The position numbers and the translations under genes were made by a program. The notes beneath the pieces were generated by a model. It saw nothing but the letters and a program-made list of their open reading frames with translations. It made no database searches and was not told where the DNA came from. A stretch of DNA of 34,779 bases. Source: a virus (taxonomy: Duplodnaviria; Heunggongvirae; Uroviricota; Caudoviricetes). Shown here in pieces: positions 4,669 to 32,394 of this stretch; positions within the stretch are counted from its first letter, which is position 1; each line of letters opens with the position of its first letter. The stretch lies in the IMG/VR virus record IMGVR_UViG_2718218308_000002. One strand, written 5' to 3'.

Positions 4669-8070
<3,402 letters not shown>

Positions 8071-8087
8071 TCATGCTCCATAAACGA

Positions 8088-8110
8088 TAAAACCGCCCGG
8101 AGGCGGTTTC
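8088..8110 (-). terminator. Hairpin plus U-tract between I and J (possible attenuator or RNA stability element)
   Basis: Minus strand AACCGCC-tccg-GGCGGTT followed by TTTATCGTTT. Confidence 0.4.
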
Positions 8111-8127
8111 ACATAAAACATTTTGCA

Positions 8128-8769
8128 TCAGCGACCAATCACCACAACCTGACCACCATCCCCTTCGTCTGCCGTGCTGATCTCCTGAGAAACCACGCGT
8201 GACCCCACGCGCATTTCACCGTACAGAACCGGCAGAACATTGCCCTGGGCAACCATGTTATCCAGAGAAGAAAAATAGGTGTTCTGTTTGCCGTTATCCG
8301 TTGTCTGTGTGCGGGGGGTTTTGGGTTTAGGGGCCAGCATCTGTGCAACACCGCCAAGCGTCATACTGGCACCGAGAGAAAACAGCAGATTACTCGCCAT
8401 AATTCCTACCCCCGGCATCCATATAGCAACCGCCATAACAGCCGCCCCCAGCACAGCCTGAAACACACCGCCACTTTTGGCTCCTGCCAGACGCGGCACG
8501 ATATGGATCACGGCACCATTTTCCAGCGGCTCATTAAGACGGGCAGACAATTCGGTTTCACCTGCATCACGCCCGGCAATGCGTACCTGGTACCAGCCGT
8601 CGCTCAGTTTCTGACGAAATGCCGGGATCTGCATGGCCAGCGCCCGGATGGCTTCGGACCCCGTTTTCACTCGAAGGTCGATGCGGCGGCCAAATCGTTG
8701 TAAATCCCCGTAAAGGCAGATGCGTGCCATGCCCGGTGACGCCAGAGGGAGTGTGTGCGTCGCTGCCAT
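8128..8769 (-). CDS. I: Tail assembly protein I, 213 aa as the longest ORF; true start uncertain because it overlaps K
   Basis: N-terminus MAATHTLPLASPGMARICLYGDLQRFG and C-terminus matching lambda I as recalled; position between K and J. Confidence 0.85.
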   Translation of the reverse strand: MAATHTLPLASPGMARICLYGDLQRFGRRIDLRVKTGSEAIRALAMQIPAFRQKLSDGWYQVRIAGRDAGETELSARLNEPLENGAVIHIVPRLAGAKSGGVFQAVLGAAVMAVAIWMPGVGIMASNLLFSLGASMTLGGVAQMLAPKPKTPRTQTTDNGKQNTYFSSLDNMVAQGNVLPVLYGEMRVGSRVVSQEISTADEGDGGQVVVIGR

Positions 8770-9410
8770 TTGTCGGTGTACCTCTCTCGTTTGCTCAGTT
8801 GTTCAGGAATATGGTGCAGCAGCTCGCTGTCACCACAGTAAATGGCGGCATGATTCGGCACCGATGAACCAAAACAGCACAGCAGCACATCGCCCGGCTG
8901 CGCCGCTGACAACGGCACCTGATACAGCCCTGTGGCCTCCAGATTATCCAGATAGAGATTCTGACCGTTACGCCACCAGTCATCCCCGCGATGAAAATCC
9001 GGCATCTCAATTCCCGCCAGATGGTAAGCGTCCCGGAACAGCGTGTAACAGTCCGTTACCCCGTGCTCAAAGCGCCGCCCGGTGAGATGCGGCACACAGC
9101 GGAATTTATGAATCGCCCCCCGGCAGACCAGCCACCACGGCAAATCACTCTGTACCTGCAGCCGCCGGTCGGCCTCACTCAGCCAGGGCAGACCACCGGG
9201 GTGGCTGTGGACCAGCGCCACAATCTCTCCCTGCATTTTGGCCTGCAGCCAGTCCTCCGGCGACATCCGGAAATACTCCTCCGGCTCACCGGAGATATTC
9301 ACGCAGGGAAAATATCTTTCCTCCTCCGGCGTTCTCACCACGAAGCCGCACGACTCCGCTGGCGCACATCGCCGGGCGTGCGCCAGAATCGCTGATTCTG
9401 TCTCTGTCAT
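8667..9410 (-). CDS. K: Tail assembly protein K (JAB/MPN plus NlpC/P60-like), 247 aa
   Basis: HSHP metal-binding motif of the JAB/MPN domain; N-terminus MTETESAILAHARR as in lambda K; conserved position. Confidence 0.9.
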   Translation of the reverse strand: MTETESAILAHARRCAPAESCGFVVRTPEEERYFPCVNISGEPEEYFRMSPEDWLQAKMQGEIVALVHSHPGGLPWLSEADRRLQVQSDLPWWLVCRGAIHKFRCVPHLTGRRFEHGVTDCYTLFRDAYHLAGIEMPDFHRGDDWWRNGQNLYLDNLEATGLYQVPLSAAQPGDVLLCCFGSSVPNHAAIYCGDSELLHHIPEQLSKRERYTDKWQRRTHSLWRHRAWHASAFTGIYNDLAAASTFE

Positions 9411-9415
9411 GGGAT

Positions 9416-10114
9416 TTACTGCGAAAGTTTGTTAATGGAAAGGAAGCTGCCAAAGTTGCCGACATTATTGCGAAACTTACAGCCACTCAGGCATTTGCTG
9501 CATTTATCCTTCGTGATATCGGACGTCGGCTGGTCATATTCATCCGCGACCGCCGGACCGCTATAACCGCACTCATCGCCGCGATAGGTCCAGGTGCAGG
9601 TGTTGGCCAGCATGATACGTCCCGGAAAAACAGCGCCATCCGTTTCAGTCGGCGTGGACAGTACAAAAGAGGCACTGACCGCGCTCAGTTCGCTGCACTG
9701 CTCGATGCGCCAGCGGCTGATCACCTCCTGCTCCGGATCGGCTTCGCTGTTTCCGTTGACGAAGTTCACCGCATCCAGAAAGCGGGCGTAAACCTTACGC
9801 CGGACCACCGTTCCGCCGACCAGACTCTGCAGATCTTCCGCCATCCCGGTGATCATGCCGTGCAGGTTAGAGACCGTCAGTGTCGGACGGGCAGCACTGC
9901 CCTTGCCGTTCATCTCAAATCCACTCCCCTGAATGGGATAGGCCTGATACTGCCGACTCTGCCAGGTGACAGACTCACCTTTTTCGTTCTGCTCATTACA
10001 GAAAAAGTAGCGATCCCCGCCTACCTCGGTCAGGTCGATTTCCCAGAGCACCACGCTGGCCGACTGCTCCGCACGAATGCATTCATTCAGCGTTTCCTGT
10101 TGTATGTCCTGCAT
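9416..10114 (-). CDS. L: Minor tail protein L, 232 aa
   Basis: Length and sequence lambda-L-like; Cys cluster near the C-terminus; stop of M overlaps the start (TGATG). Confidence 0.9.
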   Translation of the reverse strand: MQDIQQETLNECIRAEQSASVVLWEIDLTEVGGDRYFFCNEQNEKGESVTWQSRQYQAYPIQGSGFEMNGKGSAARPTLTVSNLHGMITGMAEDLQSLVGGTVVRRKVYARFLDAVNFVNGNSEADPEQEVISRWRIEQCSELSAVSASFVLSTPTETDGAVFPGRIMLANTCTWTYRGDECGYSGPAVADEYDQPTSDITKDKCSKCLSGCKFRNNVGNFGSFLSINKLSQ

Positions 10115-27340: not shown

Positions 27341-27817
27341 TTACTTTAAACACTGCTCGGTTATGTATTGCTGAGCACCTTCAAGTTGGGCCTGCATCAT
27401 TACCAGTCGTTCCCGGAGGGTGAAATAATCCCGTTCAGCGGTGTCTGCCAGTCGGGGGGAGGCTGCATTATCCACGCCGGAGGCGGTGGTGGCTTCACGC
27501 ACTGACTGACAGACTGCTTTGATGTGCAACCGACGACGACCAGCGGCAACATCATCACGCAGAACATCATTTTCAGCTTTCGCATCAGCTAACTCCTTCG
27601 TGTATTTTGCATCGAGCGCAGCAACATCACGCTGACGCATCTGCATGTCAGTAATTGCCGCGTTCGCCAGCTTCAGTTCTCTGGCATTTTTGTCGCGCTG
27701 TTCTTTGTAGGCGATGGCGTTATCACGGTAATGATTAACACCCCATGACAGGCAGACGACGATGCAGATAACCAGAGCGGAGATAATCGCGGTTACTCTG
27801 TTCATTGCTGACCCCAC
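27341..27817 (-). CDS. Rz: Rz i-spanin, 158 aa (possibly starting at MNRV)
   Basis: N-terminal TM anchor, coiled-coil periplasmic domain; follows endolysin; contains Rz1 in the +1 frame. Confidence 0.8.
27400..27585 (-). CDS. Rz1: Rz1 o-spanin lipoprotein, 61 aa, embedded in Rz
   Basis: Lipobox VVGC, proline-rich mature region [15 protein letters not shown]. Confidence 0.75.
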
Positions 27818-28186
27818 AAACAGATTTCACGCTCAATCTCACGACGAGTCATGAGACCTTTCCATTGCTTACCGCCAGCATATGTCCAGCGACGTAGCTG
27901 ATCACATGCGCCTTTGATATCGCCCTGGTTTATTTTGCGAAGAAGCGTCGATGTTCTGAAATTGCCAGCACCCACGTTGTAAACGAATGAGTAAAGAGCG
28001 CCGCGCGTTGTTTCCGGTATATCGACTTTGATGTACGGGTTAATTTGTCTGGCGACCGTGGCAAGGTCTTTATTCAAGAGTGTTTTGCATTCTGCTTTGG
28101 TATACGTTTTACCGAGCATGATGTCTTTTCCTGTATGCCCGTGACATACAGTCCATACACCAACAATATCTTTGTATGGTATGTAG

Positions 28187-29244
28187 GGCTTTGTTGAATA
28201 AATCGAACTTTTGCTGAGTTGAAGGATCAGATCACGTATCTTCCCGACAACGCAGACCGTTCCGTGGCAAAGCAAAAGTTCAAAATCACCAACTGGCCCA
28301 CCTACAATAAAGCCCTCATCAACCGTGGCTCCATAACTTTCTGGCTGGATGAGGAAGCTATTCAGGCCTGGTATGAGTCGGCAACGCCTTCATCACGGGG
28401 AAGACCTCAGCGCTATTCTGATCTCGCCATCACCACCGTTCTGGTCATTAAACGCGTGTTCAGGTTGACCCTGCGGGCTGCACAGGGTTTTATTGATTCC
28501 ATTTTTACACTGATGAATGTTCCGTTGCGCTGCCCGGATTACACCAGTGTCAGCAAGCGCGCAAAGTCGGTTAATGTCAGTTTCAAAACGTTCACCCGGG
28601 GTGAAATCGCGCATCTGGTGATTGATTCCACCGGGCTGAAGGTCTTTGGTGAAGGCGAATGGAAAGTCAAAAAACACGGCAAAGAACGCCGTCGTATATG
28701 GCGAAAGTTGCATCTGGCAGTTGACAGCAAAACACATGAAATCATCTGTGCAGACCTGTCGCTGAACAATGTGACGGACTCAGAAGCCTTCCCGGGTCTT
28801 ATCCGGCAGACTCACAGAAAAATCAGGGCAGCATCGGCAGACGGCGCTTACGACACCCGGCTCTGTCACGATGAACTGCGGCGTAAGAAAATCAGCGCGC
28901 TTATCCCTCCCCGAAAAGGTGCGGGTTACTGGCCCGGTGAATATGCAGACCGTAACCGTGCAGTGGCTAATCAGCGAATGACCGGGAGTAATGCGCGGTG
29001 GAAATGGACAACAGATTACAACCGTCGCTCGATAGCGGAAACGGCGATGTACCGGGTAAAACAGCTGTTCGGGGGGTTCACTGACGCTGCGTGACTACGA
29101 TGGTCAGGTTGCGGAGGCTATGGCCCTGGTACGAGCGCTGAACAAAATGACGAAAGCAGGTATACCTGAAAGCGTGCGTATTGCCTGAAAACACAACCCG
29201 CTACGGGGGAGACTTACCCGAAATCTGATTTATTCAACAAAGCC
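28187..29244 (+). mobile_element. IS903-like copy 2, 1058 bp, with 9-bp target-site duplication GGTATGTAG
   Basis: Same terminal inverted repeats as copy 1; identical 9-mers at 28178..28186 and 29245..29253; inserted within the endolysin gene. Confidence 0.9.
28219..29094 (+). CDS. tnp: IS903-like transposase (copy 2), 291 aa, same frameshifted C-terminus
   Basis: Protein identical to copies 1 and 3. Confidence 0.85.
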
Positions 29245-29365
29245 GGTATGTAGCTGTCACCTTCCAGACCATCGTTACCACTTGGGCCAGTGATTAACAC
29301 TGATGCTATAGCAATTGCTCCGCCACCAATAGCAGCAGCAACGACTTTTCGTAATGATGGAGGCA

Positions 29366-29581
29366 TTATTCACCTCTCGCAGCCTTGCGCTTATCTTCTT
29401 TAATCTTGAAATAAAGGTTTGTCAGGTACGTCAGCAGGCCAAATACCAGACTACCCAGCACACCGATTGCAGCCCACTGTGACGGAGTTACTCTATCGAG
29501 CAACTGTAAAAACCAGTAGCCAGCACTGCCTGCGGAGGTGCCGTAGGCAATGCCTGTTGAAATTTTGTCCATGGATTTCAT
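29366..29581 (-). CDS. S: Pinholin (phage 21 S-like), 71 aa with dual-start motif MKSM; ORF track extends it to 29638
   Basis: [26 protein letters not shown]...[17 protein letters not shown] resembles S21 as recalled; GGAGGT RBS; two TM segments. Confidence 0.85.
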
Positions 29582-29680: not shown

Positions 29681-29707
29681 AATATAAAAAGCTCGCCGTA
29701 GCGAGCT
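29681..29707 (-). terminator. Terminator-like hairpin downstream of lipoprotein gene 1
   Basis: Minus strand AGCTCGC-tacg-GCGAGCT followed by TTTTTATATT. Confidence 0.45.
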
Positions 29708-29832: not shown

Positions 29833-30228
29833 CTAACCTCGCATGTCAAAGCCAGATTTCTGAAAATCTCTGTAGACTTCCGGATTGTTGAAGGCCGGAA
29901 ATTTGGCTTTATGAGCTGCGGACTTTATCGCTTCGCAATAGGCTTTATCACCGTTACTGGTAGATATTTTTAACGCCGTGCCATCCTGAGAGAATTCCAT
30001 ATGCAACCTGCATTTTTTCCCTTTCCAGTTATGCGGCTCATCAAGTTTGGCATTAATTGCAGCTCTGATTCCCCGCGCTTGCGCCCCCCATTCATCCTGA
30101 TCATCCCAGCGTCCTGAACTGCAACTACCTGTAGCAGTAGTTTTGTGGCAATCTGAAGGGTGTAAAGGTGTGCATCCCGCAACAAAACCGACCCAAAAAG
30201 TCAACATAACGATTTTCTTTAATCCCAC
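29833..30228 (-). CDS. TolA C-terminal-domain-like lipoprotein 1, 131 aa
   Basis: Signal peptide with lipobox FVAGC; C-terminal region with two Cys and PAFNNPEVYRDFQ aligns with the TolA domain III tail; paralog of the next gene. Confidence 0.7.
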   Translation of the reverse strand: MGLKKIVMLTFWVGFVAGCTPLHPSDCHKTTATGSCSSGRWDDQDEWGAQARGIRAAINAKLDEPHNWKGKKCRLHMEFSQDGTALKISTSNGDKAYCEAIKSAAHKAKFPAFNNPEVYRDFQKSGFDMRG

Positions 30229-30378
30229 TTCTTGCTCCTCAATCCATTAAAATCTCAGCAATAGTAGTTGCTACGTCCGCCACTGGCTCAGAGCTGACTA
30301 TCCGCTAAATTTAGCTCAGTGCCGTAGCTGTGTCAGAACAAACCTAAGCCGAAACCGTTTATTACAAAACAATAAATA

Positions 30379-30807
30379 TCAGGGTTTAAAATCCAGCACC
30401 CCATTTTGAAATACTTTATATACTTCCGGCGAAGGGGGGGCAGGTATATCAGCATTCTTTATCGCATTCATCGCTTCACGACATAAATCGAGGTCTCCAC
30501 TTTCTCTTTTAACCTCCAGTAGAAGGCCATTCGGGGCCATATGCATTCTCAGTGTACACTCTTTTCCTGAATACTTACTCGCATCCCCGAACTGTTTTTC
30601 GATGGCGCTCTTGATTTGATGGGCATACAGACGGATATCCTCACTAACATCAGAAGTACGTTCAGATGAACTCACATACTGTGTCTCTATTGCTTTATCG
30701 GAGTAATATGATGTACGGTCATGATAATTTGTCGATACAGCATCAGTGCACCCGATAATAATCCCACTAATAATCAACGTAAGAATTGATGCGCTACGAA
30801 AACCCAT
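30379..30807 (-). CDS. TolA C-terminal-domain-like lipoprotein 2, 142 aa
   Basis: Lipobox IIGC; C-terminus YAHQIKSAIEKQFGDASKYSGKECTLRMHMAPNGLLLEVKRESGDLDLCREAMNAIKNADIPAPPSPEVYKVFQNGVLDFKP closely parallels the E. coli TolA C-terminus ending ...LDFKP (from memory). Confidence 0.75.
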   Translation of the reverse strand: MGFRSASILTLIISGIIIGCTDAVSTNYHDRTSYYSDKAIETQYVSSSERTSDVSEDIRLYAHQIKSAIEKQFGDASKYSGKECTLRMHMAPNGLLLEVKRESGDLDLCREAMNAIKNADIPAPPSPEVYKVFQNGVLDFKP

Positions 30808-30924
30808 TTTTCCTCACATATGTCATATAGTAAAGGATTATATATACCGTTGTTTTGGACGCTCAAACAGCGAATCAGATCAAATAAAACGCACATTTGT
30901 TAACATTTACACAAAGTCTGCGTG

Positions 30925-30945
30925 GGATATTCTGAAAGAATATCC
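30925..30945. promoter_or_regulatory. Perfect 9-bp inverted repeat with 3-bp spacer (GGATATTCT-GAA-AGAATATCC), operator-like, upstream of lipoprotein gene 2
   Basis: Read directly; lies about 120 bp upstream of the start of lipoprotein gene 2, next to a candidate -35/-10 (TTGAGC ... TATATAAT on the minus strand). Confidence 0.4.
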
Positions 30946-31744
30946 ATAATGTGGAGAGAATCTATTGAAGTGCATGGTGCCGGGTGCCTCCCGGTGAACA
31001 AAATGTTCGTGATACCTGTCGGCGACAGAAAAGGTTAATGGTATCACCCCACCGCACAGGGGGATTCACCATGCAGGAGTTTTCTTAGCAAACTCACTGC
31101 GCGCCCGGCAACTCCCAACCACATAAAATGCGGAGTTTGTGGTATTTATGCATATAACTCGCAGGAATTATCTTAAAAAACTGATGTCGATCCGGATTAA
31201 AAAGAAGCAGGTCATCATCAGATGACTGGAAAAAAGGAAAACAAAAAATACTCATCATACAGTTTTGATTGCAGGGATGAGCCTGCTATGCACAATATGC
31301 AGAATATAAGCAAGATAAAAATATGCAGGCATATTATTTCGGATTTTGTTATTAACACAACCTTTTTAATAATCATTTGGCATACAATAAACCAGCCCAA
31401 AAAGAACCGCCTAAACAGGCGGTTGGTCAATACAAAGGATGCTTCGTCTTTATTATAGTAATCTGAGGCGTCGGGTGTCTTGTATCAGACAACATATTGT
31501 CCCGCTAAACAGCGAATTACAAACCACCCTGCAATGATCTCTCATCTCATTTTATATGAGTTGACGACATCAGGATAACGCATCATCAGCCCCTGCCAAG
31601 AAATATCAAAACTCCCGCCAGCAATGTGTTATCACAATATTGTAAAAAAAACACAGCACCGAAACTATAACTGGTCTCTGTTATAATTTGGAGCAGAAAG
31701 ACCAGTTGCCCAACTAGCAGCATTCTCCCCTGCTTTCCTGACGT

Positions 31745-31772
31745 AAAAAAACCGCATTAAGCGGTTTTTTTA
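31745..31772 (-). terminator. Intrinsic terminator about 80 nt downstream of the putative Q gene (tR'-like)
   Basis: AAAAAAACCGC-ttaat-GCGGTTTTTTT, a symmetric hairpin with U-tract. Confidence 0.55.
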
Positions 31773-31851
31773 CGATGTCCATGTCTGCAATCCGCCTCGC
31801 GATACAGCTTTGCGAAGCATAGCAAAATTGAAGCAGTTTATACGTAAGAAA

Positions 31852-32394
31852 TCAAGCCATTTTCTCAGCAAATGATTCACGCATGGGAATATATAGGGCA
31901 TACTCAGCAACAGCTAACCAATTAGCAATCCGTTTTTCGCATGTGCTAAAACACCACTCTGGGTGTGCATCATTTAGCAATTCAGCCATTTTGCGCTTAG
32001 TCATCCCCCGCCCTTCATAGCGTTGCCGGAGAATGCAAATCAATCCTGGATGCTCTGCCAGCACCTCACTTATGACTCGATCAATACATAACGCCTCTGC
32101 ATCAGTACAATGCGCCAGCCAGCTCTTTTGCTTGCCGTTGATCATCTCTCGCAAAAACGCTTCCAGCTCAGCTTTCTCTATTCCCGCTTTTTTCATTCTG
32201 CGCAGGGCTTCATTAATGGCTGTTTTCGTCAGTTTTTTGGATGCCAACAACTGATTGAACATATTCCCTGACCTGCCACCGCCAATATACGACCAGCGCC
32301 CCCACATACGTAGTTTTCCCTGAATCCAGACACTTTCCAGCGTGGTGAGGCGAAGGTGTTCTCCGCTTTTTCCTGTATTCGTTGGGTAAATCAT
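31852..32394 (-). CDS. Putative late antiterminator Q, 180 aa
   Basis: Position as last gene of the nin-like operon before the terminator and lysis cassette; start overlaps the upstream stop (ATGA); family assignment is positional and tentative. Confidence 0.5.
   Translation of the reverse strand: MIYPTNTGKSGEHLRLTTLESVWIQGKLRMWGRWSYIGGGRSGNMFNQLLASKKLTKTAINEALRRMKKAGIEKAELEAFLREMINGKQKSWLAHCTDAEALCIDRVISEVLAEHPGLICILRQRYEGRGMTKRKMAELLNDAHPEWCFSTCEKRIANWLAVAEYALYIPMRESFAEKMA

Follow-up and report, generated by a model that had tools for sequence, protein, structure and literature searches.

The window analysed in this work (the whole stretch of viral DNA, 34,779 nucleotides (nt) long, IMG/VR record IMGVR_UViG_2718218308_000002) carries, between a candidate Q-type late antiterminator gene and a holin gene, two tandem genes, named here L1 and L2, whose products are predicted to be outer-membrane lipoproteins with a C-terminal domain of the kind that forms the tip of the host protein TolA (TolA domain III, below TolAIII). 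The original prediction, made from the sequence alone, had singled out the span 29833-30807 as containing two such tandem open reading frames, and both were indeed found there on the minus strand, L1 being the Q-proximal and L2 the holin-proximal member of the pair, with a spacer of 150 nt between them:

30379..30807, minus strand: L1 gene (open reading frame list), ATG start, 142 amino acids
30382..30645, minus strand: TolAIII-like domain of L1, residues 55-142, with beta3 strand VLDFKP, loop IPAPPS, beta2 strand LLLEVKR and both Cys kept
29833..30228, minus strand: L2 gene (open reading frame list), GTG start, 131 amino acids
29836..30099, minus strand: TolAIII-like domain of L2, residues 44-131, with beta3 strand GFDMRG and beta2 strand ALKIST

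Good Shine-Dalgarno sequences, as read from the DNA, precede both starts (GAGGAAAA-ATG for L1 and GAGGAGCAAGAA-GTG for L2). The GTG start of L2 at 30228 is preceded, at a distance of 6 nt, by the Shine-Dalgarno sequence GAGGAG and is used in other records as well; in Escherichia coli C9 (L001 20134-20508) the Prokaryotic Genome Annotation Pipeline (PGAP) places the start at an internal Met, which yields a protein of 124 amino acids whose signal peptide lacks the Lys-Lys n-region. The proteins begin with MGFRSASILTLIISGIIIGC (L1) and MGLKKIVMLTFWVGFVAGC (L2), each of these N-termini representing a signal peptide that ends in a lipobox (searched for with the pattern [LVI][ASTVI][GAS]C). In L1 the signal peptide (residues 1-19) with the lipobox IIGC is followed by the predicted lipid-modified Cys20, a disordered linker rich in Ser, Thr and Tyr (21-54) and the domain (55-142); in L2 the signal peptide (1-18) with the lipobox VAGC is followed by Cys19, a conserved linker with an extra Cys pair and the domain (about 44-131). 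The lipobox, which the original prediction had assigned to both reading frames, proved to be a property of the families: among the cluster representatives gathered by homologue searches, it was present in 26 of 30 full-length ones for L1 and in 119 of 120 for L2. Position +2, directly after the lipobox Cys, is occupied in the same representatives by Thr, Ala or Ser, never by Asp. According to the standard Lol sorting rule, a +2 residue other than Asp directs a lipoprotein to the outer membrane, and therefore both proteins are predicted to be outer-membrane lipoproteins, anchored to the inner leaflet.

The assignment of the C-termini to TolAIII was corroborated by profile search, by sequence matches to proteins of known structure and by structure prediction, all of which gave significant similarity for both proteins. 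The gathering cut-off of the Pfam family PF06519 (TolA C-terminal), 25 bits, was exceeded by L1 (82.6 bits, E 2.4e-23) and by L2 (54.6 bits, E 1.3e-14), and a phmmer search against PDB returned the C-terminal domain of E. coli TolA (1S62, 3QDP/3QDR, 2X9A, 1TOL) with best E values of 5e-28 for L1 and 5e-9 for L2. In the AlphaFold2 models the predicted local distance difference test (pLDDT) score is above 90 over most of the domain, the confident region comprising residues 50-142 of L1 and about 40-131 of L2, and the N-terminal 37-49 residues of the models are disordered. The best Foldseek match in PDB was 2x9a_B for L1 (target-normalised template modelling (TM) score 0.96, root-mean-square deviation (rmsd) 0.6 Å, 59% identity) and 3qdp for L2 (target-normalised TM score 0.90, rmsd 1.1 Å, 32% identity). 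The Cys pair of the domain aligns in both proteins with C363 and C388 of TolA, so this part of the original prediction stands, too. L1 additionally has a weak match to the Pfam family TonB_2, and TonB C-terminal domains were weak and distant structural neighbours of both models, their Foldseek probabilities being far below those of TolA. By profile match and predicted structure, L1 and L2 each carry a genuine TolA domain III fold, in which helices pack against a sheet of three strands.

The two domains are differently related to TolA. Over TolA residues 334-421, the identity to E. coli TolA is 59% for L1 and 31% for L2, and L1 and L2 share 28% identity, which rules out a recent tandem duplication as the origin of the pair. 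The nearest relatives of L1 are the TolA proteins of Escherichia (59-60%), followed by that of Enterobacter (56%), with Salmonella TolA at only 45%, while L2 shows about 30% identity with each of the TolA proteins tested. On TolA itself, strand beta3 (A415-K420) is the site for TolB, for colicin N and for the N1 domain of the filamentous-phage protein g3p, backbone hydrogen bonds of D418 and K420 being required (PMC4339652), and strand beta2 (L375-P380) together with K368, K379 and K396 is the site for colicin A (PMC3365938); in all these cases binding proceeds by strand augmentation (PMC4339652, PMC3365938, PMC7391070). The alignment at these sites is as follows:

Beta3 tail: APLDFKP in E. 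coli TolA, GVLDFKP in L1, SGFDMRG in L2
Loop 400-405: IPKPPS in E. coli TolA, IPAPPS in L1, FPAFNN in L2
Beta2 (375-380): LLDIKP in E. coli TolA, LLEVKR in L1, ALKIST in L2
Residues 368/379/396: K/K/K in E. coli TolA, H/K/K in L1, E/S/H in L2

In L1 the residues L417-P421 of beta3, including D418 and K420, are identical to those of TolA; most of beta2 is kept, and so are two of the three lysines that make cation-pi contacts in the colicin A site. In the beta3 strand of L2 only D418 is identical to TolA, with beta-forming residues retained. Consequently, the tail PxPPSxxVYxxF...LDFKP, which the original prediction had read in both proteins, exists in L1 (IPAPPSPEVYKVFQNGVLDFKP) and not in L2 (FPAFNNPEVYRDFQKSGFDMRG). 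The L2 family possesses a conserved mature N-terminus of its own (CxPLHPSxCHKTTATGSCSSGRWDDQDEW) that contains the extra Cys pair. The two proteins are not equivalent: the alignment marks L1 as a close, high-fidelity mimic of Escherichia TolAIII, and L2 would represent an older, divergent family with a conserved partner.

The assignment of the domain is in itself not new. PGAP labels L2 as 'cell envelope integrity TolA C-terminal domain-containing protein' and, wrongly, L1 as 'tolA', and in PHROGs both proteins match phrog_5772 from end to end (E 7e-65 and 2e-62), with the function given there as unknown. The 'tolA' label of L1 results from its passing the family TIGR02794 (75.6 bits at a cut-off of 59.45, which L2 with 47.2 bits fails) on the domain alone, the match of L1 covering just profile positions 265-362. 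Neither protein reaches the cut-off of 213 for the full-length TolA family NF007065 (L1 107.8, L2 53.7). With this score, no inner-membrane anchor, no domain II and a place outside the tol-pal operon, L1 was ruled out as a real tolA. What is new is the lipoprotein architecture of TolA domain III on mobile elements. The literature search on phage- and plasmid-encoded TolA-like proteins returned no experimental study, most subscription-journal papers being outside its coverage; this agrees with the earlier statement that no experimental characterisation of such a pair was known.

The pair is embedded in a late region of lambdoid type, the features of which, besides L1 and L2, are listed below:

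31852..32394, minus strand: candidate Q-type late antiterminator gene (DUF1133; Phage_antitermQ match at the gathering threshold; PGAP)
31396..31481, minus strand: possible late promoter AAGACA-18-TATAAT with a terminator hairpin about 28 nt on, which would correspond to a pR'/tR'-like arrangement
30918..31104, minus strand: STnc100-family prophage small RNA element (Rfam RF02076, 86.6 bits at a gathering score of 47), 110 nt upstream of L1
30837..30866, minus strand: candidate moron promoter TTGAGC-18-TATAAT, ending 30 nt upstream of the L1 start, 10/12 match to the consensus
29682..29707, minus strand: intrinsic terminator AGCUCGC-UACG-GCGAGCU plus U-run between L2 and the holin gene, a hairpin in the minimum-free-energy fold
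29366..29581, minus strand: phage-21 S-type holin gene (essD), the first lysis gene (Pfam PF04971; PGAP of the identical E. coli C9 locus)
27802..28239 and 29244..29366: halves of a gene for a signal-anchor-release-type endolysin (lysozyme), split by the insertion sequence IS5 (about 28219..29188); the cassette is phage-21-like

On the minus strand a gene for a YbcO-type nuclease is followed by Q, a gene-free region of about 1 kb, the STnc100 element, L1, L2, the terminator, the holin gene and the split lysozyme gene, so that the position between Q and the lysis cassette, claimed for the pair from the beginning, is borne out by the DUF1133/Phage_antitermQ gene upstream and by the S-type holin gene downstream. 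The G+C content of the Q-holin interval is 0.36-0.47 as compared with 0.48-0.54 in its flanks. No tRNA genes of the kind found in the corresponding gap of Stx phages are present in the window; related loci carry two. Just after Q, at 31745..31818 on the minus strand, a weak sub-threshold match to isrK was registered (21.6 bits, E 0.1). Judging from this arrangement, Q-modified polymerase would read through the pair late in lytic growth; in the lysogen the pair may besides be served by a promoter of its own, for which the consensus match upstream of L1 is a candidate.

The window is identical to a defective Rac-type prophage located at ttcA in E. coli strain C9 and in many other strains, which also carries trkG and ydaY. 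Its insertions comprise an IS1 in the portal gene and three copies of IS5, which split the endolysin gene and truncate the DUF1367 and integrase genes. Despite this load of insertion sequences in a defective prophage, L1 and L2 are intact.

The survey of relatives returned 80 IMG/VR loci. The complete pair was present in 34 of them, everywhere with the 150-nt spacer and with both genes intact, and in a 35th the pair is interrupted by the contig end. Nine of the pair loci, and likewise the phage mEp460_ev081, have a different Q gene; there the homology with the window extends from the holin gene to positions 30998-31136, ending at or inside the STnc100 element, from which it follows that the mobile unit consists of STnc100, L1, L2, the terminator and the holin gene. 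The S21-type holin gene accompanies the module always, even next to a different Q. L1-type variants, 65-68% identical to L1 overall and 76-81% in the domain, occur alone in late regions of the O157 style, where the order is Q, a DNA methylase gene, two tRNA genes, the L1-type gene and one to four copies of STnc100, followed by an AraC-like gene (L077) or nothing more (L065) and then by the nanS-p esterase and holin genes. STnc100 elements in related loci lie at L077 6515-6727 and 8487-9196, L065 6578-6786 and L002 5444-5634. In Stx2 phages, STnc100 is reported to be situated 75 nt downstream of stx2 (PMC12370729). Given this, the order of Q, tRNA genes, L1-type gene and STnc100 puts the L1-type gene in a position equivalent to that of stx. 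In lambdoid late regions the STnc100 element may form the joint between one cargo module and the next. The character of a cargo slot, ascribed to the Q-S interval before, is accordingly supported by the lower G+C content, by the terminator before the holin gene and by the stx-equivalent placement of the L1-type variants.

Other cargo seen in Q-S regions with L1-type genes (L065 3628-4770, minus strand; L077 7104-7829) includes an OmpC/NmpC-like porin, an AraC-family regulator, a DNA methylase and the nanS-p sialate esterase. On the phage contig L064 (5257-6237), a gene directly upstream of the holin and lysozyme genes encodes a protein of 326 amino acids with a Sec-type signal, an Ala-rich stretch resembling TolA domain II and a TolAIII domain 77% identical to that of E. 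coli TolA, which appears to be an independent capture of the 3' end of tolA. A secreted TolA II-III protein as a common third architecture was ruled out, the L064 cluster having three members and the other hits being partial genuine TolA.

Among 5426 complete E. coli genomes, 776 (about 14%) contain the 975-nt pair at a coverage of at least 80%, nearly all of them at an identity of at least 99%. Either gene was found in one of 50,697 isolated phage genomes, that of mEp460_ev081 (LR597641). A study of infant-gut E. coli described temperate phages that were released by spontaneous induction and formed plaques on laboratory strains, among them one mEp460 relative (PMC6969025), and mEp460_ev081 appears to be this phage, the link being made by name, as the accession is absent from the text of that paper; if the two are the same, the pair is carried by a viable phage. 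All 46 clusters of the L1 family come from E. coli and Shigella. The family of L2 is larger (370 clusters at 90% identity) and extends to Citrobacter, Enterobacter, Klebsiella, Raoultella, Serratia and Shigella at 78-89%.

L2-type genes are common on plasmids: at about 87% DNA identity such a gene was found on 612 plasmid records, and 550 plasmid places were matched within the same collection of E. coli genomes. In the IncI1/B/O and IncK2/Z plasmids examined (L003 6001-6432, L004 6001-6396), it is located 67-157 nt downstream of the MOBP relaxase gene on the same strand, and pO157 (L085 6001-6432) has retained it beside a truncated nikB, the relaxase being annotated there as NikB. On chromosomes, the L2-type gene lies between nrdDG and a GmrSD_N plus HEPN pair in Serratia marcescens, between TetR and GNAT genes in Klebsiella oxytoca, beside the ars operon in Citrobacter amalonaticus, between glutathione peroxidase and RidA-family genes in Enterobacter kobei, and beside umuDC at a prophage end in L039. 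The Serratia islet (L086 7001-7408 with 7957-9736) has a defence-like appearance owing to its GmrSD_N (DUF262) and HEPN (RiboL-PSP/MAE_28990) neighbours, which were not seen in the Enterobacter, Klebsiella and Citrobacter loci. A phage-specific family is thus ruled out for L2, the gene being carried by plasmids, pO157 and chromosomes, there as a singleton.

The chromosomal L2-type copies have about 200 nt of upstream sequence in common, which includes a conserved promoter-like motif TTGAAA-17/18-AAGAAT (L086 6931-6959, L092 6971-7000 and the aligned positions in L039, L057, L089 and L091); neither the plasmid nor the prophage copies of E. coli have this motif. An Rfam scan of this conserved 5' region gave no match near the gene in four loci. 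Having apparently lost the motif, L2 on the mobile elements of E. coli would be read from upstream and is probably co-transcribed with nikAB on the plasmids and, in the prophage, with L1, the late promoter being the other possible source there.

In line with the role as decoy or competitor raised in the original prediction, we suggest that L1 and L2 act as outer-membrane-tethered decoys for Tol-dependent phages and colicins, and give this reading a probability of about 40%. According to it, the proteins would be stand-alone tip domains of TolA, exported and lipid-anchored by a short flexible tether at the inner face of the outer membrane, off the TolQRA motor. Each domain would thereby be positioned just beneath the outer membrane, where the TolA-binding parts of invaders first emerge, namely the g3p N1 domains of filamentous phages of the Ff, IKe and If1 types, the translocation domains of colicins A, N, K and E1, and the exposed N-terminus of colicin-bound TolB. 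Capture would proceed by beta-strand augmentation, as in real TolA, and a tether of about 20-35 residues would let the decoy meet these ligands before real TolA does and hold them without energy coupling. L1 would be suited to E. coli-specific invaders, and for the IncI-complex plasmids the natural threat would be a filamentous phage specific for the I pilus.

Several lines of evidence are consistent with this scheme. Both proteins combine the TolAIII fold with a lipobox that predicts an outer-membrane anchor, and L1 retains the beta3 strand and most of the beta2 strand by which TolA binds its ligands. L1 is closest to Escherichia TolA and its family occurs only in E. coli and Shigella, as is expected of a mimic of the local co-receptor. 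Over-production of TolAIII in the periplasm makes E. coli colicin-tolerant and leaky, which illustrates that a decoy is plausible and also that it may be toxic. The IncI-complex plasmids specify I pili, which are the receptor of phage IF1. The g3p of this phage has been crystallised with TolA-C as the co-receptor (PDB 2X9A). Conversely, periplasmic g3p-N1 sequesters TolA, which confers colicin A resistance and lowers phage uptake 10^4-fold (PMC10424213). The affinity of TolAIII for TolB is weak, with a dissociation constant of about 37-43 μM (PMC4339652), and the N-terminus of TolB is sequestered when TolB is Pal-bound and displayed when it is bound to colicin E9 (reviewed in PMC7391070); considering both facts, a decoy could intercept invaders at little cost to the Tol-Pal system. 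The carriage of the genes is also typical of exclusion or defence cargo, as regards the Q-S slot, the intactness of the genes, their frequency (776 of 5426 genomes), their presence on IncI-complex plasmids and the GmrSD_N/HEPN neighbour.

A number of observations weigh against the decoy reading. Neither of the known ligand-binding strands of TolA is conserved in the sequence of L2, and L2-type genes frequently stand alone on the chromosome in unremarkable surroundings of metabolic genes, a setting that does not speak for defence in particular. L1 and L2 matched no family of PADLOC-DB 2.0 at E values up to 1, and a known anti-phage defence system was rejected on this basis. The promoter calls are consensus matches, and the pair lies in a presumably Q-dependent late operon, so its main expression may fall during lysis, when exclusion is pointless; given its place inside this transcription unit, a role of the pair during lytic growth is possible. 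Finally, TolAIII tethered to the outer membrane might titrate TolB and be harmful. The broader proposition, that co-receptor mimicry constitutes a previously unrecognised class of entry defence on lambdoid prophages and IncI-complex plasmids of Enterobacterales, seems to us doubtful as a whole. Under it, invaders that dock to TolA or to the N-terminus of TolB (Ff, IKe, If1, group A colicins and related bacteriocins) would be intercepted, L1 and L2 together would offer two ligand specificities, and the IncI gene would guard against the pilus-specific filamentous phages to which cells are laid open by the pilus of the plasmid itself.

Of the competing explanations, the one that survives best, unlikely as we consider it, makes the proteins antagonists of the Tol-Pal system: TolAIII supplied in bulk from the late transcript would capture the N-terminus of TolB and uncouple TolB-Pal from the TolQRA motor, and the resulting tol-like envelope, with an unstable outer membrane, vesiculation and blocked constriction, would help lysis, release of particles or shedding of vesicles. 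The place of the pair directly upstream of the holin gene and inside the presumably Q-dependent unit suits this explanation, as does the constant company of the S21-type holin gene, even when Q differs; L1 retains the TolB-binding beta3 strand, tol mutants are known to leak and to hypervesiculate (PMC4339652 among other reports), and the secreted TolA II-III fragment of contig L064 is also encoded immediately upstream of a holin gene. It is contradicted by the strong terminator that separates the pair from the holin gene, by the weak TolAIII-TolB affinity, by the persistence of the intact pair in prophages whose lysis genes have been destroyed by IS5, and by the L2-type genes on conjugative plasmids and chromosomes, where a toxic Tol antagonist would be costly.

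A different partner, especially for L2, appears somewhat less probable still. The TolA/TonB-type fold binds short beta-strand 'boxes', and the protein could bind the periplasmic face or the TonB/Tol box of an outer-membrane receptor or porin, or some other envelope protein, and so shut the entry of phages or bacteriocins from inside, like Llp of T5 and Cor of phi80 and HK022 act on FhuA. The strands of L2 are unlike those of TolA, yet the mature protein is 78-92% conserved across genera over its whole length, linker and extra Cys pair included, which implies a specific conserved partner; the weak TonB_2 match of L1 and the TonB C-terminal domains among the structural neighbours of both models point in the same direction, and the format of an outer-membrane lipoprotein is that of Llp and Cor. 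The Foldseek probabilities for TonB domains, however, are far weaker than those for TolA, and the TolA-specific motifs that are so well kept in L1 speak for TolA ligands, in the case of L1 at any rate.

That L1 and L2 are merely functionless 3' ends of tolA, captured by illegitimate recombination and passively carried in the Q-S region, is improbable: lambdoid late regions are indeed mosaic and rich in junk, the host prophage is defective, and a single one of the 50,697 isolated phage genomes carries the genes, but both families have acquired and conserved a lipoprotein signal peptide, neither the two domain Cys nor any part of the fold has been lost, none of the 34 complete pair loci contains a broken copy of either gene, L1 has kept its binding strands at a divergence of 41% from TolA, and the conservation of L2 reaches across genera, its chromosomal copies being preceded by a conserved promoter-like motif. 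Mixed or unforeseen functions are possible as well.

TolAIII is an entry point shared by filamentous phages and by a large share of the colicins and related bacteriocins that are employed in competition among gut Enterobacterales. If L1 and L2 are decoys, they would represent a new principle of exclusion, in which a co-receptor is mimicked instead of a receptor being masked; they would help to explain differences between strains in sensitivity to colicins and filamentous phages and would be relevant to phage display, to bacteriocin-based therapeutics and to the defence by conjugative plasmids of cells that expose pili. If the proteins are Tol-Pal antagonists instead, they would be natural tools to control outer-membrane stability and vesiculation.

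In comparison with known systems, the closest relation of L1 and L2 is to E. coli TolA domain III (PF06519; 1S62, 1TOL, 3QDP/3QDR, 2X9A), to which both are homologous, having the same alpha/beta fold and the same Cys pair; L1 shares also the LDFKP of beta3, the IPxPPS loop and most of beta2, whereas L2 is just about 31% identical, and its edge strands are different. Unlike TolA, they have neither the inner-membrane anchor (domain I) nor the long helical domain II, and hence no coupling to TolQR and the proton motive force; in place of these they possess a lipoprotein signal and a tether of 20-35 residues, and they are encoded on mobile elements instead of the tol-pal operon. As regards their genomic setting, they resemble the late cargo of lambdoid phages (stx; bor and lom of lambda) in lying in or beside the late operon, although the protein family is unrelated, and their segment displays the lower G+C content, the dedicated terminator and the candidate promoter of classic morons.

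In format they are reminiscent of Llp of T5 and Cor of phi80, N15 and HK022, small phage-encoded outer-membrane lipoproteins that inactivate FhuA from the periplasmic side and so protect the carrier cell. The logic, protection against phages and colicins that share one entry route, would be the same. There is no relation in sequence or fold, Pfam and PHROGs having returned for L1 and L2 only TolA-type families and families of unknown function; and the mode of action would differ, a receptor being blocked by Llp and Cor and a co-receptor mimicked by L1 and L2. The periplasmic g3p (N1) of filamentous phages, in turn, targets the same interaction of TolAIII with N1, and the resistance to filamentous phages and colicin A to be expected is the same (PMC10424213); but g3p sequesters the co-receptor of the host, whereas L1 and L2 would sequester the ligand of the invader and leave the host TolA free.

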